This document shows positions 3,382-61,640 of a stretch of DNA of 64,000 bases, in pieces. Source of the stretch: Patescibacteria group bacterium. GTDB taxonomy: Bacteria > Patescibacteriota > Minisyncoccia > Phycocordibacterales > Phycocordibacteraceae. The position numbers were made by a program, and so were the translations under genes. The notes beneath the pieces were generated by a model. That model ran no database searches. It was not told the origin of the DNA and saw only the letters and a program-made list of their open reading frames with translations. How positions within the stretch are numbered: position 1 is the stretch's first letter; every line of letters begins with the position of its first letter. The stretch is taken from NCBI GenBank assembly GCA_029260935.1, contig JAJDCJ010000016.1, positions 19,648-83,647 of the forward strand. The letters are read 5' to 3'.

Positions 3382-4456
3382 AAATTGTTCTCAACTCTTC
3401 TGGTACCACATACTCATATCGTCCGCCAGTTTTAGAAAACGCTGTTACTGAATCGTATTTATATCTATATCCAAGTTCGTTGGTTACTTTTATACCATCC
3501 ATTACAATTGGATAACTATAGAAACGCCACACACCTGCTGCTGTTGGAACTTTGCCAAAAGTAAGATGTCTCATTACAAAAAAAACAACTCGTACGACTG
3601 ACGGTGGGAAAATGACTACCTTCTTTCCTATCGCTCGCCCCATATCTTCAGGCAATACCACGTTCCCCGGTGGTGCAAGGTTATACAAATTTATTTTGTT
3701 CGGTGCACCACTGAATACCAAAATCGTCAGAATGTCAGCAATGTCATCCTCATGAATAAATTGCCTACACCACTTTTTTGTTGCAGGAACTACACTGGTA
3801 AGTGCATTCACTAATGTATATGCGAATTCACCTTTTAATTTGCCAGAAAGTGCAGATTGAAGCCCGAACCGAATGCGTGAGAATCTTCCGCGAGGCCCAG
3901 TAATAGCCGCGGGTCTAATGATTGATACTTGCACATCTCCTGTTTCGCCACGCCCTATTCGGGCACATAGATCTTCTTCGACCACTTTTTTTTCTTTTGC
4001 GTATAAGTATACTTCATCCTTGAGCGGTGCTTCAGCATCAAATAATTCATCAATTTCATTGTCGGGGAATGCCCCAAAAATAGATGCTGTTGAGAAATAA
4101 ATGAGACGATCAACACTTGGTAAAGAAAAGACAAAATCAAAAATATCTTTTGATCCGGTGACATTCCAAAGCCATTGTTTTTTAGGATTGAAATGTAGGT
4201 TCCTAATTTGCCATGCTGCATGAATAACAATGTCTGGGTTTTTAGCCCGAACTTTTTCTTGCCACGAATGGTCTGATGTATTTGCGTGAACCCATGTTAC
4301 CTTTTCTTTATTAGCAATAAACTCTGCCGGCTCTTCCATATCAAGTGCAATAATTTCTGCAACATCGTCCCTCTCTGACCATTGATCAATGAGCATGGCA
4401 CCAACATATCCTGCTGCACCAGTAAGAAAAATTGTATGTGTATTTTTATTTTCCAT
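3368..4456 (-). CDS. NAD-dependent epimerase/dehydratase (SDR family)
   Basis: TGAAGYVG Rossmann motif at N-terminus, 362 aa; 14-nt overlap with downstream gene. Confidence 0.75.
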   Translation of the reverse strand: MENKNTHTIFLTGAAGYVGAMLIDQWSERDDVAEIIALDMEEPAEFIANKEKVTWVHANTSDHSWQEKVRAKNPDIVIHAAWQIRNLHFNPKKQWLWNVTGSKDIFDFVFSLPSVDRLIYFSTASIFGAFPDNEIDELFDAEAPLKDEVYLYAKEKKVVEEDLCARIGRGETGDVQVSIIRPAAITGPRGRFSRIRFGLQSALSGKLKGEFAYTLVNALTSVVPATKKWCRQFIHEDDIADILTILVFSGAPNKINLYNLAPPGNVVLPEDMGRAIGKKVVIFPPSVVRVVFFVMRHLTFGKVPTAAGVWRFYSYPIVMDGIKVTNELGYRYKYDSVTAFSKTGGRYEYVVPEELRTIYEEQ

Positions 4457-7585: not shown

Positions 7586-8704
7586 ATGGAAAACAATCGG
7601 AAAAAAGTCTTGTTTATAGTCACAAAATCCGTGATGGGAGGTGCCTCACGGTATACTTTTGAGCTGGCTCTCGGTGTGAAAGACACTCACGATGTGCAGA
7701 TAGTCGCCGGGGGTTCCGGCGAGCTTTTTGAGCAGGCAAAGAAGGCGGGCATCGCTACAGTTTCTATTCCGAACTTAGCGCGTGACATTAGTATTTTTAA
7801 AGAGATACAGTCCTTTTTATTTTTTGTATCACTGTTCAAAAAGGAACACCCTGACGTGGTGCATGTAAATAGCCCAAAGGTAGGAGGGCTGGGGGGGCTT
7901 GCCGCACGTATAGCTGGTGTTAAAAAAATTATTTACACGGCGCACGGCTGGGCATTTTTTGAAGACCGCCCACACTACCAAAAACTATTGATACGCTTTT
8001 TCTCGTATGTCACCGTACTGCTGGTTACAAAAGTAATTGCGGTGAGTAAAAAAGACGCGCATGCATTTGATGGCTGGCTGTTTACCAAAAACAAAATTAT
8101 ACATATTCCAAATGGTGTGACACTCAATGCGCACGTTACCCACGAGGAAGCGCGTACTGTGTTGCACTCGTATGACATTCCCACTCGCGGTATGATTGTC
8201 GGCACGATCGCCGAGCTTCACAACAACAAAGGGCTCACGTATTTAATTGAAGCGGCAAAGGATATTTCTGACGCGACGTTTGTGGTAATAGGCACAGGTG
8301 AAGAGGAAGACGCGCTGCGCGCGCTGGTACAAAAAACAAATCTCGGTGCGCGCTTTTTCTTCACTGGCTACATACCAAACGCGGCGCGCCTGATTAGTGG
8401 TTTTGATATTTTTGTCCTTCCTTCACTAAAGGAGGGTCTGCCGTATGTACTGCTTGAAGCTGGTGCACAGGGCGTTCCTGTTGTTGCAAGTAATGTCGGC
8501 GGTATTCCTGAAATTATTGAAGACGGAAAGTCGGGGTTGTTGGTCTCTGCAAAAAAACCTTCCGAGCTAAAAACAGCGATAGGTGAACTGCTAAAAGACG
8601 AGGAAAAAAGATGGCTGTTTAGCGCTGCGTTAAAAACGAAAATAGCTGAAGAATTTTCTCTTAAGGGAATGATTCAAAAAACGGTGGCTGTGTACAGCTC
8701 CTAG
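7586..8704 (+). CDS. glycosyltransferase family 4
   Basis: C-terminal EGLPYVLLEAGAQGVPVVASNVGGIPEII (GT4 E-x7-E region); start chosen at MENNRKKVLFIV (ORF from 7556). Confidence 0.8.
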   Translation: MENNRKKVLFIVTKSVMGGASRYTFELALGVKDTHDVQIVAGGSGELFEQAKKAGIATVSIPNLARDISIFKEIQSFLFFVSLFKKEHPDVVHVNSPKVGGLGGLAARIAGVKKIIYTAHGWAFFEDRPHYQKLLIRFFSYVTVLLVTKVIAVSKKDAHAFDGWLFTKNKIIHIPNGVTLNAHVTHEEARTVLHSYDIPTRGMIVGTIAELHNNKGLTYLIEAAKDISDATFVVIGTGEEEDALRALVQKTNLGARFFFTGYIPNAARLISGFDIFVLPSLKEGLPYVLLEAGAQGVPVVASNVGGIPEIIEDGKSGLLVSAKKPSELKTAIGELLKDEEKRWLFSAALKTKIAEEFSLKGMIQKTVAVYSS

Positions 8705-8886
8705 TCACAGATAATTCCCTCGTCAGCCATTCGGGAATTTCCGCGACCCGATAAAAGCGACTTCGGGTAGCTTTTATCCGTGAGGAGAGAAGCGACTACA
8801 CGTGAGACGATTGGCGTGCTCGCAAAACATGGCTCCGGTCCGTTCGTGTGTTCATGAAAGTGCAGTAGTGCACTTTCATGAACCAC
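8704..8886. repeat. structured noncoding repeat, copy C
   Basis: See 63151..63339; the overlapping 61-aa ORF 8701..8886 is not conserved in frame with the other copy. Confidence 0.5.
8853..8884. terminator. 14-bp-stem hairpin TTCATGAAAGTGCA-GTAG-TGCACTTTCATGAA between convergent GT4 and ftsW-family genes
   Basis: Perfect inverted repeat seen in sequence; no strong U-run, so may be a structural element of the repeat described in findings. Confidence 0.4.
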
Positions 8887-10002
8887 TCACGCGCCCACCA
8901 CCTCATGGCGGGTGTCTTCGTGAACAAGTCTGCGATAGCCGTACATTGAGGAAATTATACCGAGCATAAGGTATTCAATAATGAGGTGAGAGCCACCGTA
9001 GCTCATAAACGGAAGTGTGGTGCCGGTAACGGGAAGCAGACCGATATTCATTCCAATGTGAATAGTAAGGTGCACGACAATAAGCACCCCTACCCCGAGA
9101 GTAAAGAGTGTTTCAAAATTAGTGGCACCATGGCGAGCGTTTACTACAATACGCCACAAAAGTATGCCAAATAATAAGAACAGGAGGAGGGCGCCACCAA
9201 ACCCCCACTCTTCAGAAAAGGCGGCAAAGATGAAGTCAGTTTCATGTTCCGGAAGAAACTGGAGACGCGACTGTGTGCCATAGCCAATTCCCTTCCCAAG
9301 AAGTCCACCGGAGCCGACGGCAACCGTTGATTGAAATGCGTTGTAGCCAGCCCCTTGAATGTCGGCAAGCGGGTGAATGAACGTGAGGACGCGTGTTTTT
9401 TGATAGTCGGCAAACGCAAACGTCCAGAGAGAAGCCGCTGTTATCAGCCCTATACCTAAAAGAAATGCGAGGTGTCTGAGCGGAATGCCGGCGAGGAGCA
9501 CCACACCCACCCAGACACCGAGGATAATAATTGCCGAACCGAAGTCGGGTTGTAAAAACAGAAGAATGAAAATAATTGCAGTGTATATTCCAGAGACAAT
9601 AATATGCCTCATGCGTGCTATTTCAATGTGACGACGTGAGAAGTACTTTGCCAACATAATAATGAGCGCTAGTTTTGCCGGGTCTGCCGGTTGGATTGAA
9701 ATAGGACCGAGACTAATCCAGCTTTGTGCGCCCTGAAAGGTTGAGCCGATAAGAAAAAGAGACAATAGAAGCAGGAGTGCGATGATGTATATACTGACAA
9801 CACTTACTGTGCGACGCAAAAAACGCCAATCTATAAGGTGTGCCCCGAAAAAAACCATCAACCCTAAAAAGAGCCACACTACTTGGCGTGGGGCAAACTG
9901 GTTATCATTTCCAAACTCATACATACTCACAATCCCCAAAAAAGTGATGACGACCGCAGCACCAACGAGCACCCAGTCAATGCGCTGTAGAAGTGCCCTC
10001 AT
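8887..10002 (-). CDS. FtsW/RodA/SpoVE (SEDS) family peptidoglycan polymerase
   Basis: 371 aa, 10 predicted TM segments, conserved SEDS blocks (GSGGLLGKG, PFMSYGGS). Confidence 0.8.
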   Translation of the reverse strand: MRALLQRIDWVLVGAAVVITFLGIVSMYEFGNDNQFAPRQVVWLFLGLMVFFGAHLIDWRFLRRTVSVVSIYIIALLLLLSLFLIGSTFQGAQSWISLGPISIQPADPAKLALIIMLAKYFSRRHIEIARMRHIIVSGIYTAIIFILLFLQPDFGSAIIILGVWVGVVLLAGIPLRHLAFLLGIGLITAASLWTFAFADYQKTRVLTFIHPLADIQGAGYNAFQSTVAVGSGGLLGKGIGYGTQSRLQFLPEHETDFIFAAFSEEWGFGGALLLFLLFGILLWRIVVNARHGATNFETLFTLGVGVLIVVHLTIHIGMNIGLLPVTGTTLPFMSYGGSHLIIEYLMLGIISSMYGYRRLVHEDTRHEVVGA

Positions 10003-10974: not shown

Positions 10975-14750
<3,776 letters not shown>

Positions 14751-22584: not shown

Positions 22585-23286
22585 TTATATTTTCGCGAAC
22601 AGCTCAGTGCTTTCTATTTCAAATAGTTCTTTGATGTTTGAAAAATTAGGGACATCTTCAGCAAGTTCCGCAAGTGCGGATGCTGAAAGAATCGTGCGTT
22701 CAGGGCGGTTCGCCCTCGGTTGCATGTCGGGAAAACTTGCATGCTGATATCCCTGCAAAAACTCATATACTTTGTGCGGTTCGGCAACACCTCGCTCTTT
22801 CCATCCAGGAAGCCAAACATCGAGAGGATTCAACGCGACATAGGCAAACAACCAGCGCAGGTATTCATTGGTGTCTACATGTTTACTCTTAAAACGCCCC
22901 TGAAATACTGTGCCGCTATGTTCGTATAGCGTATTGAAATACATAGAGTACGCAGTTCCAACTTTTTTCATAAAATGCGAAATCCCGTTTTCGGTCTTTT
23001 GTCTCACAATAAGGTGAAAGTGGTTCGGCATAAGTGCGTACGCTAGCACATCCACCAGCCCCTGATCTGGCTTTTCTTCCCTGAATATGAGCAAGGACCG
23101 ACCTTGCTCATTCTTATATTTTCTTAAGATATTTTCCATTCTTAAACCTTCCGAGCTGTTTGCAAGGAAAAGTAGGATTTTGAAACGAAAGTAATCATGA
23201 TTGCTTAGAAAAATATCCGCCTTATGCGCACCGCGGTTGTAAACATGATAAATTTCCCCTTCTAAAAATGGCACCTTCCTGAACAT
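22585..23286 (-). CDS. IS200-like / REP-associated tyrosine transposase (HUH Y1 transposase, COG1943 type)
   Basis: HUH motif MPNHFHLIV, catalytic-Tyr region GTVFQGRFKSKHV...LFAYVALNP; 233 aa. Confidence 0.75.
   Translation of the reverse strand: MFRKVPFLEGEIYHVYNRGAHKADIFLSNHDYFRFKILLFLANSSEGLRMENILRKYKNEQGRSLLIFREEKPDQGLVDVLAYALMPNHFHLIVRQKTENGISHFMKKVGTAYSMYFNTLYEHSGTVFQGRFKSKHVDTNEYLRWLFAYVALNPLDVWLPGWKERGVAEPHKVYEFLQGYQHASFPDMQPRANRPERTILSASALAELAEDVPNFSNIKELFEIESTELFAKI
23088..23112. repeat. REP-like hairpin TGAGCAAGG-ACCGA-CCTTGCTCA (inside RAYT coding region)
   Basis: Near-exact inverted copy recurs at 23308-23332 just upstream of the RAYT start. Confidence 0.5.
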
Positions 23287-23307
23287 ATATTCATAATACC
23301 ATAAGTG

Positions 23308-23332
23308 AGTAAGGTCGGTCCTTGCTCATTGT
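23308..23332. repeat. REP-like hairpin TGAGTAAGG-TCGGT-CCTTGCTCA (reverse complement of 23088-23112 copy, 1 mismatch)
   Basis: 24-nt match to the reverse complement of the intragenic copy. Confidence 0.5.
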
Positions 23333-56273: not shown

Positions 56274-56543
56274 ATGTTTCATTACATCTATATACTTCAG
56301 TCAAAAAAAGACGGAGGGTTTTATGTAGGGTATACAAGTAATTTGCAGGGACGATTTGAGGAACATGCCCGAGGCGGAGTGGCTTCTACCAAGGACCGCC
56401 GACCTTTTCGTATTATCTACTCAGAGGCATGTTTAGATAAAAAAGACAGTATGAAGCGCGAAAAGTATTTAAAAACCCACCATGGTAAAATGTTTTTACG
56501 AAATCGCCTCAAATCGTATTTAACAGGGTCTAAGATTTCCTAA
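56274..56543 (+). CDS. GIY-YIG nuclease-domain protein (UPF0213/YhbQ-like, 89 aa)
   Basis: YIYILQSKKDGGFYVGYTSNLQGRFEEH...REKYLKTHHG pattern of the stand-alone GIY-YIG family. Confidence 0.7.
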   Translation: MFHYIYILQSKKDGGFYVGYTSNLQGRFEEHARGGVASTKDRRPFRIIYSEACLDKKDSMKREKYLKTHHGKMFLRNRLKSYLTGSKIS

Positions 56544-56573: not shown

Positions 56574-57260
56574 ATGGCACTTTCAGACAAAAAAATACTT
56601 GAATACAAAAAGAAAGGGTTGGTAGTTATTGAACCATTTATAAGAGAGAACCTCTCCACCTCAAGTTATGATGTGACTCTGGGCGAATGGTACTTTAGAG
56701 AACAAATACCAGAGCGCGGTCAAAATAATATTTTTAATCCGTTTAGTAAAAAACACACTGACCGTGTCTGGGGCACTAAACCAGCGCGTGCTGAAAAAGC
56801 AGAGAAAGCGCTGAAAAACTTTCACTTTGAATATGATGGTATACACAAAGATGACAACATTATTCTCCTTGAACCGGGAGAAACTATACTAGGGCATACG
56901 AATGAATTTATTGGAGGAAGGGATGCTGTAACCACTATGATGAAGGCCCGCTCATCTACTGGCCGCGTGTTTATTGAGGTATGTAAATGCGCTGGGTGGG
57001 GCGACGTTGGATATACAAATCGTTGGACAATGGAAATAACGAACAATTCACGTAACTATATTATTCCATTAGTGGTTGGAAGACGTATTGCGCAAATTGT
57101 TTTTTTTGAAACAGGAGAAATTTTAGATAAAGACTACACAAAAAAAGGAAAGTACCAAACTACTACCAACGTGAAAGAGTTAAAGAAAAACTGGGATCCT
57201 ACAATGATGTTACCAAAGCTCTACAACGACCGTGACATCAAAAAGAAAAAGAGGAAATGA
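56574..57260 (+). CDS. dcd: dCTP deaminase family protein (dcd/dut superfamily) with Lys-rich tail
   Basis: N-terminus MALSDKKILEYKKKGLVVIEPF typical of dCTP deaminase; 228 aa. Confidence 0.7.
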   Translation: MALSDKKILEYKKKGLVVIEPFIRENLSTSSYDVTLGEWYFREQIPERGQNNIFNPFSKKHTDRVWGTKPARAEKAEKALKNFHFEYDGIHKDDNIILLEPGETILGHTNEFIGGRDAVTTMMKARSSTGRVFIEVCKCAGWGDVGYTNRWTMEITNNSRNYIIPLVVGRRIAQIVFFETGEILDKDYTKKGKYQTTTNVKELKKNWDPTMMLPKLYNDRDIKKKKRK

Positions 57261-57742
57261 TTATTCTCATTGCCGCAATCGGTAGAAACAGAGAACTTGG
57301 TAAAAGTGGCAACTTGTTGTGGAAACTGCCAAGTGATTTAAAGCGTTTTAAAGAAACGACTCTCAACTCCCCTATTATTATGGGGAAGAAAACCTTTGAC
57401 TCCATTGGCCGTTTACTGCCTAAACGGGTAAACATCATTGTGACGCGAGACACCGATTTTCATCAAGAAGGCGCTGTAGTGACACACTCGGTTGAACAGG
57501 CACTGAGCGTTGCACATAATGTAGGAACTGAAAAAATATTCGTTATTGGCGGTGGTGAAATATTCAAACAGACACTACCCCTTGCAGACGAGCTTGATTT
57601 AACCCTGGTTGATGCTGAAGACAAAGATGCAGACGTATTTTTCCCAGAGTTTGAAAAAGATTTCAAAAAAGTTATGTGCGAAAACCCTGGAGAAGAAGAA
57701 AACACTCTTCGCTATCAGTGCTGTACTTTCTCACGAAAATAA
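57257..57742 (+). CDS. folA: dihydrofolate reductase
   Basis: MIILIAAIGRNRELGKSGNLLWKLPSDLKRFKETT; 4-nt overlap with dcd. Confidence 0.88.
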   Translation: MIILIAAIGRNRELGKSGNLLWKLPSDLKRFKETTLNSPIIMGKKTFDSIGRLLPKRVNIIVTRDTDFHQEGAVVTHSVEQALSVAHNVGTEKIFVIGGGEIFKQTLPLADELDLTLVDAEDKDADVFFPEFEKDFKKVMCENPGEEENTLRYQCCTFSRK

Positions 57743-57744
57743 AA

Positions 57745-57770
57745 ACAGCCCCGAAGGTGGGGCTGTTTTT
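57745..57770. terminator. rho-independent terminator AACAGCCCCGAAGGTGGGGCTGTTTTT after folA
   Basis: GC hairpin plus T-run directly after folA stop. Confidence 0.55.
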
Positions 57771-57775
57771 ATTAA

Positions 57776-57822
57776 AAATATCTCAAAAGGTCGATTGATG
57801 TTGCATTATTTCACATCAACTC
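57776..57822. repeat. 46-bp direct repeat copy 1 (AAAATATCTCAAAAGGTCGATTGATGTTGCATTATTTCACATCAA)
   Basis: Identical (1 mismatch at first base) to 58036-58082, which contains the rplK stop codon and 3' UTR. Confidence 0.7.
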
Positions 57823-58035
57823 ACACATACTTTTCTGCTGAAAAGTTGCGCGAGCCCGCCTCGGCCCGTCGGCCTCCGGCTCATCGACGTTACACTACTA
57901 TCAAGTGAGTGAGGAAAATGGAAAAATTGTATTTAGACATTTTCGAGCGAATGCGGAGAGAAAGCTCTGCTTACTTCACGTCGATTCCTTACAGGAACTG
58001 TACACCTTTTGGATGTTTTTTCGAACAAAGTTCTG

Positions 58036-58082
58036 AAAATATCTCAAAAGGTCGATTGATGTTGCATTATTTCACATCAATC
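58036..58082. repeat. 46-bp direct repeat copy 2, overlapping last 5 codons + 3' UTR of rplK
   Basis: See copy 1; 213 bp of ORF-less DNA between copies. Confidence 0.7.
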
Positions 58083-58489
58083 CCCATTGAGCGGGCGGTG
58101 CCTGCCATAATTTTCATAGCTTGATCAATATCGTCAGTGTTGAGGTCGGCCATTTTCATTTCAGATGCTTCCTTGAGTTGTGCCTTTGTAATAGAACCCG
58201 CTTTTACCAAAGGTACTTTACCTGAACCTTTTTCTTTGCCGAGAAGTTTTAGAAGAATACGCGACGCAGGTGGCTGTTTGAGAATAAAGCTAAATGTTCG
58301 GTCTTCATACACAGTAATCACTGCAGGGATGATATTACCGCGCATTTCTTGGGTTTGCGAATTGAACTGGCTGATAAAGTCGCCAATATTAATGCCAGCG
58401 GGGCCCAATACGGTGCCCAATGGAGGCGCTGGAGTTGCAGACCCTGCAGGTGCCTGAATCTTTATTACTTTTGTTACTTTCTTTGCCAT
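58067..58489 (-). CDS. rplK: 50S ribosomal protein L11
   Basis: MAKKVTKVIKIQAPAGSATPAPPLGTVLGPAGINI...; not followed by rplA. Confidence 0.92.
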   Translation of the reverse strand: MAKKVTKVIKIQAPAGSATPAPPLGTVLGPAGINIGDFISQFNSQTQEMRGNIIPAVITVYEDRTFSFILKQPPASRILLKLLGKEKGSGKVPLVKAGSITKAQLKEASEMKMADLNTDDIDQAMKIMAGTARSMGIDVK

Positions 58490-58564
58490 ATCGTTTGTTT
58501 TCGTTAGTGAGTATACATGAACTGGAAAAAACTTCCACTTATCTCTTTTTTATTATATACATTG

Positions 58565-59110
58565 CTAAATCTTACGTATCTGTAGGAAATCAAGCTCCAC
58601 TGGGGTTTCTCGTCCAAACATAGAAACCAGTACTTTAATTTTTCCTTTATCTTCATCAATATCACCAATGCGTCCTTCAAGGTCTTTAAATGGACCATCA
58701 GTTACAATAACTGGTTCACCTGGAGCAAAGTCAATCTTGTGTTTTGCAATATCAGTTGACATGCGCTTGAAAAGATTATCAAGCTCCTCTTGAGAAAGAG
58801 GAACGGGTGTAGTACCAGCGCCAACGAAACCAGTTACTCGGGGCGTGTTGCGCACCACAAACCAACTTTCATCGTCAACAAGCATGTCAACAAGAATGTA
58901 GCCCGGGTAAATTTTTTCATCCACTGTTTGCCGTTTTCCGCCAGTAACTTTAATTTTCTTTTCAGTAGGAATCACTACGTCAAAAATCTTTCCGTTCATA
59001 CCTAAAGAATCAATGCGCTGTTTAAGGTTACGCATCACTGCGTTTTCATATCCTGAGTATGTATGAATGGCGTACCATCCACGATCTCCTTCTGGTCCTT
59101 GCTTTGTCAT
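58565..59110 (-). CDS. nusG: transcription termination/antitermination factor NusG
   Basis: NGN domain WYAIHTYSGYENAV, KOW domain GEPVIVTDGPFKDLEGRIGDID. Confidence 0.9.
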   Translation of the reverse strand: MTKQGPEGDRGWYAIHTYSGYENAVMRNLKQRIDSLGMNGKIFDVVIPTEKKIKVTGGKRQTVDEKIYPGYILVDMLVDDESWFVVRNTPRVTGFVGAGTTPVPLSQEELDNLFKRMSTDIAKHKIDFAPGEPVIVTDGPFKDLEGRIGDIDEDKGKIKVLVSMFGRETPVELDFLQIRKI

Positions 59111-59132
59111 AATAGAGCTCTTGTATTACGCG

Positions 59133-59321
59133 CTAAAACCGATTAATAATTTCCTCAACGCCGAATGTAAAAATAAAATCAAACGCACCAAGAAGTGCGG
59201 CAACTAAAATAGAGATAACCACAACGAGCGCGGTGTAGCCAATTGCCTGTGGCGTGGCTGGCCACTTTATATGTGTGAACTCAGAGCGCACGTCGCTTAG
59301 ATACTGTAGGAGAGTTTTCAT
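59133..59321 (-). CDS. secE: preprotein translocase subunit SecE
   Basis: 62 aa; EFTHIKWPATPQAIGYTALVVVISILVAAL; secE-nusG-rplK order. Confidence 0.8.
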   Translation of the reverse strand: MKTLLQYLSDVRSEFTHIKWPATPQAIGYTALVVVISILVAALLGAFDFIFTFGVEEIINRF

Positions 59322-59404
59322 ATGTATGAGGTATTTAAAAAGGCCCTTTCCCCAGGCCTTTTTAAAAGGTACCTGAAATTTTGAGAAAAATCAAGTGCGT
59401 CTAT

Positions 59405-60181
59405 TTACCGGATTTCGTAAGTAATAGACACCGTCACATTGATTTCATTTTCACCTTTTGGCAACTCAATAGATTGAGTCTTTGCGCCAAACACTTCGCC
59501 TCCAACACTTTCTGCAAAGAACGGTCTATCGTTTGAATTTTCCCAGAAATTCACTACCCGACCCAAACTCACCCCGAGATCTTTTGAAAGTCTTTTTGCT
59601 TTGTCTTGTGCGATTTTAATTGCCTCGCCCCTGGCTTCTTCTTTAAGTGCATCAGGGTCGTCAATGGCAAAAGAGGGTCCGCTTACGTTGTAAACTCCTT
59701 TATCTCCCAATATGCTGAGTACTCCTCCTGTGCTGTCTATGTCGCGCACTTTTATTTCAAGTGACTGCGAAACAGTGAAGGCAATTATTTCCTGTTCAAA
59801 CTCTGGACATACCCCACCGAAACACGGCTGAGGTCTAGAATAGCGAGGGGAGACATTGTATGATGTTGTTTTGATGTCCTTCTCTTCTATATCAAAGTCT
59901 TCTCTAAGCGCCTCAAGGGTAGCATTTACTTTTTGAGCAACAGCGTCTTGCGCCGGCGCTGAAGTTTCTGACTCTTCGCGCACAGTAAAGCGCACCGTTG
60001 CTATGTCAGGCAATGCTACTGCTGACCCAACACCTTCAACGGTAATAGTGTTGCCGAGGGCAGGGCGTGCTTCAAATAAGTCGCGCAGTGAATCAATCGC
60101 CTGAATGCCCACGAGCACAGATGCGGCAAGTAAAAACAGGGCGGCTAATTTTTCAACGCGACTACTCTCTAAAAGCTTCAT
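59405..60181 (-). CDS. SIMPL-domain (DUF541) secreted protein
   Basis: Signal-like N-terminus, 258 aa; family assignment by pattern memory, moderate. Confidence 0.5.
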   Translation of the reverse strand: MKLLESSRVEKLAALFLLAASVLVGIQAIDSLRDLFEARPALGNTITVEGVGSAVALPDIATVRFTVREESETSAPAQDAVAQKVNATLEALREDFDIEEKDIKTTSYNVSPRYSRPQPCFGGVCPEFEQEIIAFTVSQSLEIKVRDIDSTGGVLSILGDKGVYNVSGPSFAIDDPDALKEEARGEAIKIAQDKAKRLSKDLGVSLGRVVNFWENSNDRPFFAESVGGEVFGAKTQSIELPKGENEINVTVSITYEIR

Positions 60182-60370
60182 ATAGTTTTTTGTAAAATTA
60201 TTTTTATAATTGCAGTAATGGTAACACTAAATACTGCATTACTCTTAGTGTAAAATGCCAAATCAATTGGCAAACCATACAGGAAAATCGCACTGGCGCT
60301 CCCATACACACACCTCTGTTGTGATACACTTCAACTGGACTAGAAATCCCCACCCGTTATACTTATATTT

Positions 60371-61147
60371 ATGGAGCTTGCTTTTGTATATGCAATTATC
60401 AGCACTCTGCTGGTAAGTTTTGTTTCCCTCATTGGTATTTTTACACTTTCTGTACAAGAAAAGTGGATCCGGCGTTTTATGCATGTTTTTATTGGACTCG
60501 CTGCCGGTGCCCTTTTAGGAGACGCTTTTATTCACCTCATCCCTGAAGTTTTTGAGTCAGGAATTAGTAGCGTGTCGTTTGCTACCTCAGCATTGCTCGG
60601 AATTATTGTATTTTTATTTGTTGAAAAATATCTCCACCTTCACCACGAAGAGACTGGGCACGAACACTGCGCGCCCGGAGAGCCGTGTGTCTCTCACGAA
60701 AAGAAACCTCTCGGCACACTTGTGTTGTTTGGTGACGGCATACATAACTTTGTTGACGGAGCTATTATTGCCGCCAGCTACTTAGTATCAGTCCCTCTTG
60801 GTATCGCCACCACTGTTGCTGTATTTTTGCACGAAGTACCACAGGAAATAAGCGACTTCGCACTATTGTTGCACTCTGGCTTTAGCCGAGCGAAAGCATT
60901 ATTTTGGAATTTTATGTCAGCGCTGGTTGCACTCGTTGGAGCTTTTTTGTTTTTTATTCTAGGAGACACATTCCAAAACATAGAACCCTTCATGATCTCA
61001 TTTACTGCCGGTGGTTTTATTTATATTGCAGCAGTGAATCTTATTCCTGAACTACAAAAAACAAGCGACGCGCGTAGGTCAACAATAGAATTTACCGCTG
61101 TCTTAGTGGGTATTGCGCTTATGTTCGCGCTTTTATTACTAGAATAG
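60371..61147 (+). CDS. ZIP-family divalent metal transporter (ZupT-like)
   Basis: HEVPQEISDFALLLHSGFS signature, His-rich loop HLHHEETGHEHCAPGEPCVSHEKK, 8 TMs. Confidence 0.8.
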   Translation: MELAFVYAIISTLLVSFVSLIGIFTLSVQEKWIRRFMHVFIGLAAGALLGDAFIHLIPEVFESGISSVSFATSALLGIIVFLFVEKYLHLHHEETGHEHCAPGEPCVSHEKKPLGTLVLFGDGIHNFVDGAIIAASYLVSVPLGIATTVAVFLHEVPQEISDFALLLHSGFSRAKALFWNFMSALVALVGAFLFFILGDTFQNIEPFMISFTAGGFIYIAAVNLIPELQKTSDARRSTIEFTAVLVGIALMFALLLLE

Positions 61148-61336
61148 CCCGAAGCTATCGCGCACCACGTCGTACGTTTTGAGTACCACGATTTTTATGT
61201 GCGCCACTCAGGCGCGGTGCAACACGCGCCGGTGGCATAGAATTATTTCTGTTGGTATGCGACGATGGTCTTTTTTTCATATACCTTATAGTATGACACA
61301 CGGAAATGCACCCTTAATATTTCTTACAAATATAGT

Positions 61337-61582
61337 TTATGTACGGGGGGTTTTGTGGAGTGTCTTTACGCCCTCAAAACCGTGTTCATGGCGGGTAAAA
61401 TACCAAAAAGTGTGCACTACAAACAAAATAATCTGAAGAATTAGTGCAAGACCCGCTGCTTTCCAGAATGATCCTGTAGTCACCCAAAAAAATAGGTTGG
61501 TAACAATGTAGGCGATGACTCGCCATTCAAGTGAAGCATATAATGAGTGGAGAATTTTATCCTTCATTTTCAAAACCATCAT
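61337..61582 (-). CDS. small two-TM membrane protein (DUF2061-like)
   Basis: 81 aa; hydrophobic helices; weak. Confidence 0.3.
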   Translation of the reverse strand: MMVLKMKDKILHSLYASLEWRVIAYIVTNLFFWVTTGSFWKAAGLALILQIILFVVHTFWYFTRHEHGFEGVKTLHKTPRT

Positions 61583-61640
61583 ACCATCCTGCTTTCAAAG
61601 AAAAGAGAACTTGTACACAAAAATCAGCGTGATTTCAGAA

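Follow-up and report, generated by a model that had tools for sequence, protein, structure and literature searches.

Direct repeats of a gene's 3' end at tRNA or transfer-messenger RNA (tmRNA) genes are the classic footprint of genomic islands. Integrative elements at such genes, and their integrase-less (cis-mobilizable) derivatives, sit in the 3' part of a gene, leave the host gene intact with a displaced end beyond the element, occur as arrays at one site, and show filled and empty sites among relatives. Miniature inverted-repeat transposable elements (MITEs), the repetitive extragenic palindromic (REP) elements of the REP/REPIN-RAYT type, the RPE and Correia elements, and the IS200/IS605-derived PATEs are short, non-coding, multicopy, rich in hairpins, and intergenic at gene 3' ends. 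A third set of systems, comprising group I and II introns, archaeal mobile tRNA introns, tRNA-derived short interspersed nuclear elements (SINEs), and retrozymes, combines RNA-like folds with flank-pairing guide stretches. Here we describe an insert that shares traits with all three. It lies behind the ribosomal protein L11 gene, rplK, in a 64,000-nucleotide (nt) stretch of a Patescibacteria group bacterium (contig JAJDCJ010000016.1, hereafter the window) and contains two small elements, M1 and M2. We consider it somewhat probable that this insert is the footprint of a family of small insertion elements of Parcubacteria/Paceibacteria, non-coding and non-autonomous, which home to sequences resembling a T-arm and keep the host gene intact.

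All the features just named for integrative elements are shared by M1 and M2, and two of the marks by which such elements are recognized, direct repeats of gene 3' ends and empty sites in relatives, were found; the third, an accompanying recombinase gene, was not. M1 and M2 differ from integrative elements in their size (60-230 nt), in having no nearby integrase, in their covarying folded core, and in carrying the reverse complement of their target; their repeats run from 12 to >45 nt, and their sites include the 5' parts of tRNAs, 5S genes, and a protein gene. With the MITE- and REP-type elements they have in common every trait listed above and would also share dependence on an enzyme acting in trans, and a Y1_Tnp gene is present in the genome. 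Those elements themselves either combine terminal inverted repeats with a short duplication of fixed length or make no duplication at all, unlike M1 and M2, whose duplications span 12 to at least 45 nt. Nor is M1 or M2 the hairpin that flanks Y1_Tnp, as a REP/REPIN repeat would be: the palindrome found there, GAGCAAGGNCSGNCCTTGCTC, is unrelated to both. Miniature IS200/IS605 derivatives make no target duplication and so do not correspond either, although the fixed junction GGTT/CGA (the slash marking the insertion point) and the hairpins give some resemblance. We know of no MITE- or REP-type element that homes to the tRNA T-loop, keeps a covarying three-way junction, or carries a target-complementary arm.

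The likeness to structured RNA mobile elements lies in the RNA-like fold, in flank-pairing stretches reminiscent of intron guides, in insertion points within tRNA loops, and in 5'-truncated host copies with variable duplications as in retroposition. M1 and M2 differ in standing beside an intact gene and not inside a functional one and in their size, well below that of any self-splicing intron; neither a bulge-helix-bulge motif nor a reverse transcriptase was identified for them, and bacterial SINE-like elements are, to our knowledge, not known. Rfam 15 gave no match on the rplK insert at E values up to 10, and on the region, the whole window, and 18 related loci (the latter at gathering score) it returned only tRNA, rRNA, tmRNA, and one group I intron in a 23S gene, with no intron or self-cleaving ribozyme at the elements. 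Resemblances to the K-turn, group II domain V, hammerhead, signal recognition particle RNA, and RNase P were considered by eye only and fitted poorly. The literature on tRNA-linked elements of the candidate phyla radiation (CPR) yielded nothing relevant. The element family and its 61-nt folded core therefore appear undescribed, being absent from Rfam 15 and not found in our literature searches.

The insert came to attention through a repeat. A repeat search of the window found two 45-nt copies, 100% identical, at 57775-57819 and 58036-58080; they lie 261 nt apart from start to start and are separated by 216 nt (57820-58035). A 45-mer repeated exactly within 261 nt excludes chance. An earlier sequence-only reading of the window had seen this repeat, placing it at 57776-57822 and 58036-58082 with a length of 46 bp and 213 bp between the copies; its existence stands, with the measurements corrected as above. 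That reading also described the interval as free of open reading frames (ORFs), which is right in that nothing there looks coding, although mechanical ORFs of 43 and 71 amino acids (aa) overlap it. The repeat takes in 14 nt from the end of the rplK coding sequence, up to and including the stop (..TT GAT GTG AAA TAA), and a further 31 nt of 3' flank. The rplK product is a 100% match to P0001, and a product identical to it carries the Ribosomal_L11_N and Ribosomal_L11 Pfam domains. Convergent with rplK (minus strand) lies folA (57257..57742, plus strand). An independent Logan assembly (run SRR15505513) is identical to the window from 58036 to 63222, that is, from rplK through the tRNA-His site discussed below. 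Read in the rplK sense, the parts of the locus follow one another in this order:

58067..58489, minus strand: rplK coding sequence (ribosomal protein L11; from the ORF list), product ending ..GIDVK and stop
58036..58080, minus strand: proximal 45-nt repeat copy, with the functional rplK end (14 nt, stop included)
57989..58051, minus strand: M2, a hairpin CCUUUUGAG...CCAAAAGG followed by UGUACAG-UUCC-UGUAA (rplK sense)
57971..57988, minus strand: third rplK end, diverged (GGAATCGACGTGAAGTAA, coding G I D V K stop) and displaced behind M2; read directly
57891..57970, minus strand: spacer between the displaced rplK end and M1, homologous to the segment after rplK in locus L061
57883..57890, minus strand: X' (ACGTCGAT), 5' strand of helix P1, from the alignment to the M1 model R1
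57820..57880, minus strand: M1 core, a 61-nt three-way junction (R1 88.3 bits, E 3.6e-21)
57775..57819, minus strand: distal 45-nt repeat copy, a pseudo rplK end touching the 3' end of M1
57738..57773, no strand assigned: perfect 15-bp hairpin between folA and the repeat (inverted-repeat search)

The rplK insert is thus a mosaic of M2, an older diverged rplK end, and then M1. The comparison that follows draws on related loci (labelled from L001) fetched via RplK with one genome per species. The first 16 nt of M2 lie within the repeat, whose proximal copy holds the hairpin partner ACATCAAT and CGACCTTTTGAGATATTTT, the latter being the 5' part of M2. In general form M2 is the hairpin CCUUUUGAG..CCAAAAGG followed by UGUACAG-NNNN-UGUAA, where NNNN complements the start of the next flank; in the window, UUCC complements the GGAA just after the element. 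The fetched loci contain 15 copies of TTAC-N-CTGT(A/C)CAC, and wherever a copy was read through, its 4-5 variable nt complement the adjacent flank. M2 follows rplK in L047, L056, L061, and the window, and each time a displaced rplK end beginning GGnATnGAnGTG comes next, equivalent to 57971..57988. L056 has a 40-nt rplK-end repeat around M2, and L061 has three rplK ends, the distal ones more diverged, so that both loci are arrays of rplK ends and elements.

Further along, the spacer contains a hairpin, GAGC..GCTC at 57945-57967, that by eye weakly resembles a "GGUGAG-hairpin-GCAAG" module preceding M1 elsewhere. X' exactly complements the displaced end ATCGACGT and can pair, via G.U, with UUGAUGU of the distal repeat. 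A sequence homologous to the proximal repeat copy, ..ATCAATCGACC.., follows rplK in L205, L202, and L047, and the junction of M1 with a second rplK end recurs in L004, L005, L025, L045, L046, L053, L073, L123, L132, L156, and L202. The hairpin at 57738..57773 is probably a terminator common to the convergent folA and rplK, and the M1-free site of L207 has a similar one. If these are insertions, the rplK end has been hit repeatedly, leaving layers: the functional end, M2, an older end, M1, and the oldest end.

The core of M1 is a conserved folded motif. In the window it reads GCC-GGA-(GGCC GACG GGCC)-GA-GGC-GGG-(CUCGCGCA A CUUUUC AGCA GAAAAG UA UGUGUGAG), and the palindrome CTTTTCTGCTGAAAAG and GC-rich tract that the sequence-only reading had picked out in the insert are the tip of its helix P3 and its helix P2, respectively. 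The fold supported by 99 aligned copies has three arms: P1 closes the junction, P2 is a hairpin interrupted by an internal loop (GGA/GA), and the long hairpin P3 ends in a tip rich in A and U. Across the four M1 helices, 92.5% of cells are paired, versus 74% in shuffles and 35-45% with slid partners, and double-sided changes number 468 against 137 expected; P2b is 99% and P3 98% paired, and G38.U66 is invariant. The covarying columns are positions that had been left free in the search pattern. M1 thus shows the compensatory changes of a conserved structured RNA, beyond both the shuffled and the slid controls. G.U pairs outnumber A.C pairs (207 versus 44), which indicates that the folded strand is the gene-sense strand (window minus), whether as RNA or as single-stranded DNA. 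The M1 junction is under selection as a folded single strand of that sense.

The stretch upstream of the core adds a second layer of pairing. P1 reaches at least 8 bp in 29% of copies, compared with 6.5% when flanks are swapped between copies, and the pairing of X' with the rplK end covaries with synonymous codon changes, forming a hairpin across the stop codon. M1 carries a target-complementary stretch just upstream of its core, with which the element and the distal repeat can form P1 and close the junction.

M1 is not a peculiarity of this genome. A pattern built from its invariant positions gave at least 120 matches in metagenome contigs, and among the matches listed are ~104 non-redundant true copies; altogether M1 occurs in >100 metagenome and genome loci of Parcubacteria. 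It lies directly after the rplK stop even in distant Parcubacteria, where RplK identity to the window falls to 61-67%, and the layout there is constant: the end (X), the complementary stretch (X'), M1, and a second end (X2). Elsewhere its neighbor is a tRNA or tmRNA: a gene of this kind on the same strand ends no more than 300 nt upstream in 53 of the 91 copies with enough flank (usually 15-95 nt away), and M1 is co-oriented with the tRNA or tmRNA in 69 of the 73 copies that have one within 300 nt. tmRNA genes and the 3' part of 5S genes are also among the hosts, and the distance of M1 downstream of a tRNA, tmRNA, or 5S gene on its strand is 15-150 nt.

In the commonest form, the 3' end of M1, GUGAC, is followed at once by C56..N73 of the neighboring tRNA, and the intact tRNA reads ..GGTT/CGAnTCC.. 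at the matching point, so that M1 stands between positions 55 and 56. Just upstream of M1 is the reverse complement of the tRNA target segment. As it includes the T-loop (ATTCGAA), it does not reproduce the 5' strands of the tRNA itself. The tRNA-end repeats that follow M1 are exact over 18-22 nt and sometimes over at least 45 nt including the terminator; across all copies the target duplication measures 12 to at least 45 nt. Other copies have the 5' module GGUGAG-hairpin-GCAAG and lie within partial tRNA copies, with the intact tRNA upstream or downstream, at insertion points between positions 8 and 9, in the D-loop, in the anticodon loop, or between 47 and 48. These points, like that between 55 and 56, are all unpaired in the tRNA fold. 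The target set is limited: tRNA genes are entered at the T-loop (as are tmRNA genes), at other loops, and at the 3' terminus, 5S genes in their 3' part, and rplK at its 3' end. The last rplK codons, GGGnTTGAT, resemble a T-arm; the opposite strand reads TCGATCCC. The host gene is intact in every case, its terminal segment (12-45 nt or more) being present a second time beyond the element.

M1 as an intron of a sole tRNA gene was rejected: removal of the motif and 40,000 deletion variants re-found only the intact upstream tRNA, and since removal never restores a sole tRNA, M1 is not the intron of a working gene. The position after rplK had suggested a mimic of an L1- or L11-binding mRNA site, an idea dropped because M1 also follows tRNA, tmRNA, and 5S genes.

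Several loci show more elaborate arrangements. Inverted copies of GGUGAG-hairpin-GCAAG bound some long M1 copies (L201, L149) and are absent from the common form and from the window copies. In L201 (~4200-4430) and L149 (minus strand, ~1100-1310), a closed domain of ~210 nt contains M1, a short host-derived piece, and M2; such a long form may represent a single larger RNA or a pair of elements that converge on the same T-arm fragment. L142 (3962-4126, minus strand) has two full M1 copies 88 nt apart upstream of tRNA-Ser, and in L167 (8351-8500) and L135 (1-170, minus strand) a second, degenerate M1 comes right after the first. A small extra hairpin (..AGCGUAAUCGCG..) between CGAA and UUCC of the duplicated T-loop/T-stem in L084, L117, L186, L188, L195, L170, and L098 is a further variable module of the M1 3' flank.

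Comparison with relatives whose RplK is 88-91% identical shows that the sites are filled in some genomes and not in others. In L207 and L208 the rplK-folA gap is 43-45 nt and holds the terminator only, with no M1, and model R1 found no M1 anywhere in the fetched stretches of these two. L205 and L206 retain an M1 fragment (..ATCAATCGACC AAA GCACGGCGGTGCG..), while L202 and L203 have a degenerate M1 (45 bits) and a pseudo-end after rplK. The gap from tRNA-His to DUF2914 is 49 nt in L202 versus 319 nt in the window, and this empty L202 site aligns with the distal repeat, the terminator, and the beginning of DUF2914 in the window; the tRNA-Leu site is empty in L202 as well. Of 80 genomes selected solely through rplK, 8 have M1 immediately behind that gene; behind tRNA-His it is present in 3 of 27 related genomes. 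The sequence-only reading had proposed looking for the motif elsewhere and for unfilled sites, and both were found: the motif in >100 loci, an M1-free rplK site in L207 and L208, and empty tRNA-His and tRNA-Leu sites in L202.

The rplK-folA gap is also a hot spot of gene-content change. In L202 (7582-8325) and L203 (2996-3739), which at 91% RplK identity are the closest of the fetched relatives, the decayed M1 and folA are separated by an F420-ligase-like gene; the gap contains two small ORFs in L204 and a 95-aa ORF in L002. In the window, 1.2 kb from the rplK insert, an 89-aa GIY-YIG nuclease-domain ORF (56274-56543, plus strand) stands between thyA and dcd; since thyA and dcd are adjacent without it in L205 and L206, it looks like a further small insertion polymorphism.

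Besides the rplK copy (88 bits), model R1 finds three other M1 copies in the window, making four: at tRNA-His (80 bits), at tRNA-Leu (20 bits), and near a rodA-like gene (24 bits). The corresponding features are:

63043..63115, minus strand: tRNA-His(GUG), host gene (ARAGORN; Rfam tRNA 60 bits)
62769..63064, minus strand: tRNA-His insertion complex in four parts (repeat searches), with M1 at 62859-62919 (R1 80.4 bits)
63131..63420, minus strand: tRNA-Leu(GAG) site, with the tRNA at 63336-63420 (ARAGORN) and a degenerate M1 at 63235-63297 (R1 19.8 bits)
8696..8786, minus strand: fourth M1, diverged (R1 23.7 bits, E 2.9e-4)

The tRNA-His copy is the one that the sequence-only reading had glimpsed when it reported the same palindrome and GC-rich tract beside this gene: 60 nt of the rplK insert recur at 62860-62919, downstream of tRNA-His, with 77% identity, and the palindrome/GC-rich core pattern occurs twice in the window against 0.14 expected by chance. 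The flanking repeats at this site (62769-62796 and 63030-63057) are 93% identical and spaced 261 nt. The tRNA-His terminator hairpin has been lengthened to a palindrome of ~33 bp, in which the far arm (62982-63017) repeats the 3' end of the tRNA in reverse complement, and a second terminator comes after the distal repeat. The rplK and tRNA-His repeats have the same 261-nt spacing despite lengths of 45 and 28 nt and different inserts, and this equality may be a coincidence. At tRNA-Leu the flanking repeat is at 63321-63338 and 63131-63148. The fourth copy lies downstream of a rodA/ftsW-like ORF (8887..10002) and has an intact P3 with P2 replaced. The variant CCGGAGCCAUGUUUU is private to it and the tRNA-Leu copy, which suggests that M1 has spread within the genome. 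This fourth M1 is situated in the convergent gap between the rodA/ftsW-like gene and a glycosyltransferase, is preceded by a 15-bp terminator-like hairpin, and is followed by GGAGCTGTACAC, an M2-like start.

The sequence-only reading had further observed that rplA, the ribosomal protein L1 gene, is missing behind rplK. This is true of the window and of all related loci: a tblastn search with an approximate E. coli L1 query found nothing in the window or in ~200 related loci, and in every one of >80 related loci rplA does not follow rplK, the ORFs downstream being other, non-L1 genes. Loss of L1 defines a large Parcubacteria group, OD1-L1 (PMC5220378; bioRxiv 10.1101/2022.01.07.475337), the lineage lacking L1 having been reported by Brown et al. 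2015, as cited in PMC5220378. Our loci do not differ from this group, having rplK without a following rplA and no L1 homologue in the window or the >80 loci. The absence of rplA is thus an already described trait of the OD1-L1 lineage and is unrelated to the insert. The suggestion that the insert is the scar of a deleted rplA does not hold, with the gene missing in all of the >80 loci and only ~44 nt between rplK and folA at M1-free or nearly empty sites. An rplA remnant was likewise rejected, there being no L1 similarity and only other genes downstream.

How might such elements move? If they are mobile, they would be moved by machinery encoded elsewhere; the folded core would be a handle recognized by that machinery or by the element's own chemistry, and the complementary stretch would help to define the insertion site. 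We think that an RNA intermediate is the most likely route, ahead of folded single-stranded DNA. Read-through transcription from a highly expressed host gene would produce the RNA, which would be joined to exposed loops of a host RNA, reverse transcribed, and then recombined beside the parent gene. An RNA stage is suggested by the variable repeat length, the 5'-truncated host copies, the insertion points in tRNA loops, the strand-specific fold, and the co-orientation with highly transcribed genes.

The proposal of small insertion elements has several points to answer. When ORFs within 3 kb of the ~104 M1 copies (among the matches listed) were clustered all against all, only housekeeping genes emerged, with no recombinase, transposase, or reverse transcriptase. 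Neither an excision junction nor a circular form nor a transcript was seen. The junction nucleotides are conserved across distant genomes, which is unusual for a purely selfish DNA repeat, and insertion as such does not account for the origin of the target-complementary arm. The repeats match the host gene even at old-looking sites (tRNA-Trp in five genomes; tRNA-His), which needs recurrent re-insertion, gene conversion, or selection, the last of which would favor a functional RNA. In the window, the outermost rplK ends are identical over 45 nt and the middle copy has diverged. Finally, the search pattern fixed 20 of the 61 core positions, so that diverged relatives and other contexts are under-sampled. 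The site-specific, att-like insertion proposed in the sequence-only reading is supported in its essentials: the duplicated host 3' segments at tRNA, tmRNA, 5S, and rplK and the differing sites among relatives agree with it. The mosaic structure of the insert, the covariation of M1, and the absence of an associated integrase were not foreseen there.

If M1 were instead a functional host RNA, acting in cis or standing alone as a 3' processing, stabilizing, or termination module or a small tRNA mimic with a stem modelled on the 3' strand of the acceptor and T-arm, and with the repeats as part of the function, its strong covariation, invariant junction bases, and strict co-orientation with highly expressed genes would be expected. 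At homologous tRNA-Trp and tRNA-His sites the distal repeat also varies along with the tRNA sequence of the genome in question, and P1 mimics the stacked acceptor and T stems, with two cases in L150 having an extra hairpin exactly at their junction. Such a function is hard to reconcile with the patchy occurrence (8 of 80 rplK sites, 3 of 27 tRNA-His sites), the M1-free or empty sites in close relatives, the decayed copies (L205, L202, and window 63235-63297 and 8696-8786), the tandem or nested arrays (L142, L056, L061), the presence of M1 behind unrelated genes (rodA-like, rplK, 5S), and the terminator-like hairpin between host gene and M1 at several sites. We regard a host function as unlikely, yet keep it alive because of the origin of the complementary arm, the host-identical repeats at old sites, and the conserved junction bases. 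Mobility through folded single-stranded DNA, with an HUH/Y1 enzyme in the style of REP/REPIN-RAYT or IS200/IS605 TnpA and the junction as a DNA hairpin signal on the lagging-strand template, seems to us improbable. It would accommodate a strand-specific structure that tolerates G.T pairs and co-orientation with genes that normally follow replication. In IS608 a guide pairs with the cleavage site, and the 4-5-nt flank-complementary stretch of M2 may be viewed as analogous. The window does encode a candidate enzyme, along with RecA and the small GIY-YIG protein:

22585..23286, minus strand: Y1_Tnp ORF (IS200-like, RAYT-like), 233 aa (Pfam 33 bits versus a cutoff of 23)

The REP-like palindrome GAGCAAGGNCSGNCCTTGCTC occurs just upstream of this ORF and once inside it (hairpins at 23307-23327 and 23089-23109), and a homologue in L207 (9163-9882, 29% identical) has the perfect hairpin TATACGGCAAGTCCGACTTGCCGTATA on both sides. 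These hairpins differ from M1 and M2 in both genomes and are found only beside the Y1 genes, and a REP/RAYT link was rejected on this ground. L207 and L208, moreover, have a Y1 gene yet no M1 detected by R1 in the fetched stretches; insertion of the IS200/IS605 type leaves the target unduplicated, whereas the sites described here regularly show repeats of 12-45 nt; and insertion points in tRNA loops are a property of the RNA fold. Quite improbable, in our view, is that the repeats are att sites of integrase-driven genomic islands later deleted to a stub, a cis-mobilizable remnant with M1 as part of the island arm. Direct repeats of gene 3' ends at tRNA and tmRNA genes and one-site arrays resembling tandem integrations speak for such islands. 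The stubs would nevertheless all be uniformly tiny, with no integrase near the ~104 copies (among the matches listed) and no recombinase gene in the window's rplK insert (ORF list); what they share is a covarying folded motif and not protein-binding arm repeats; their crossover points are very diverse, including tRNA 5' parts, 5S, and a rodA-like 3' flank; and neither viral contigs nor phage or plasmid records gave a match to the M1 pattern. Hardly credible is an origin without any element, by simple local tandem duplication, replication slippage, or deleted-rplA debris. The exact 45-nt repeat with its 261-nt period, which the tRNA-His site shares, might suggest a common slippage unit, but the sequence between the repeats is not copied from neighboring DNA and consists of motifs found in >100 other loci, which also contradicts the local duplication that the sequence-only reading had named as its own possible refutation; and all relatives lack rplA, even where rplK and folA are 44 nt apart, and no L1-like remnant is present.

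Returning to small insertion elements, a more far-reaching version, which we offer tentatively and think doubtful, is that M1 and M2 are the nucleic-acid part of an undescribed mobile element. Here the complementary stretch and the junction would direct insertion into exposed tRNA-like loops, either by the element's own RNA chemistry (a small reversible ribozyme plus reverse transcription) or, in the manner of bridge RNAs, by guiding a recombinase that acts in trans, and the duplicated end would be a built-in means of keeping single-copy essential genes of a minimal genome alive. Miniature non-autonomous elements are a known kind, and there is a real chance of a new mechanism. Parcubacteria have tiny genomes, single-copy tRNA genes, and few described mobile elements, and the tRNA T-arm is the most conserved sequence in the cell. 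An element that homes to the T-arm, spares the gene by duplicating its end, and has an intron-like core without a protein would, if real, be a new solution to the conflict between parasite and host. It would also supply a new structured motif for Rfam, a strain-level marker for uncultured bacteria, and possibly a programmable principle of target recognition. For annotators, it would mean that "pseudo-tRNA ends" and duplicated rplK ends are element footprints and not assembly errors.

The 23S rRNA gene of the window shows another kind of enlargement. Its match (10992-14750, minus strand) spans 3759 nt versus 2925 positions in the model, leaving ~800 nt extra that may be insertions or introns, as reported for CPR rRNA genes. 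Among the related loci, the 23S gene of L116 carries a group I intron.

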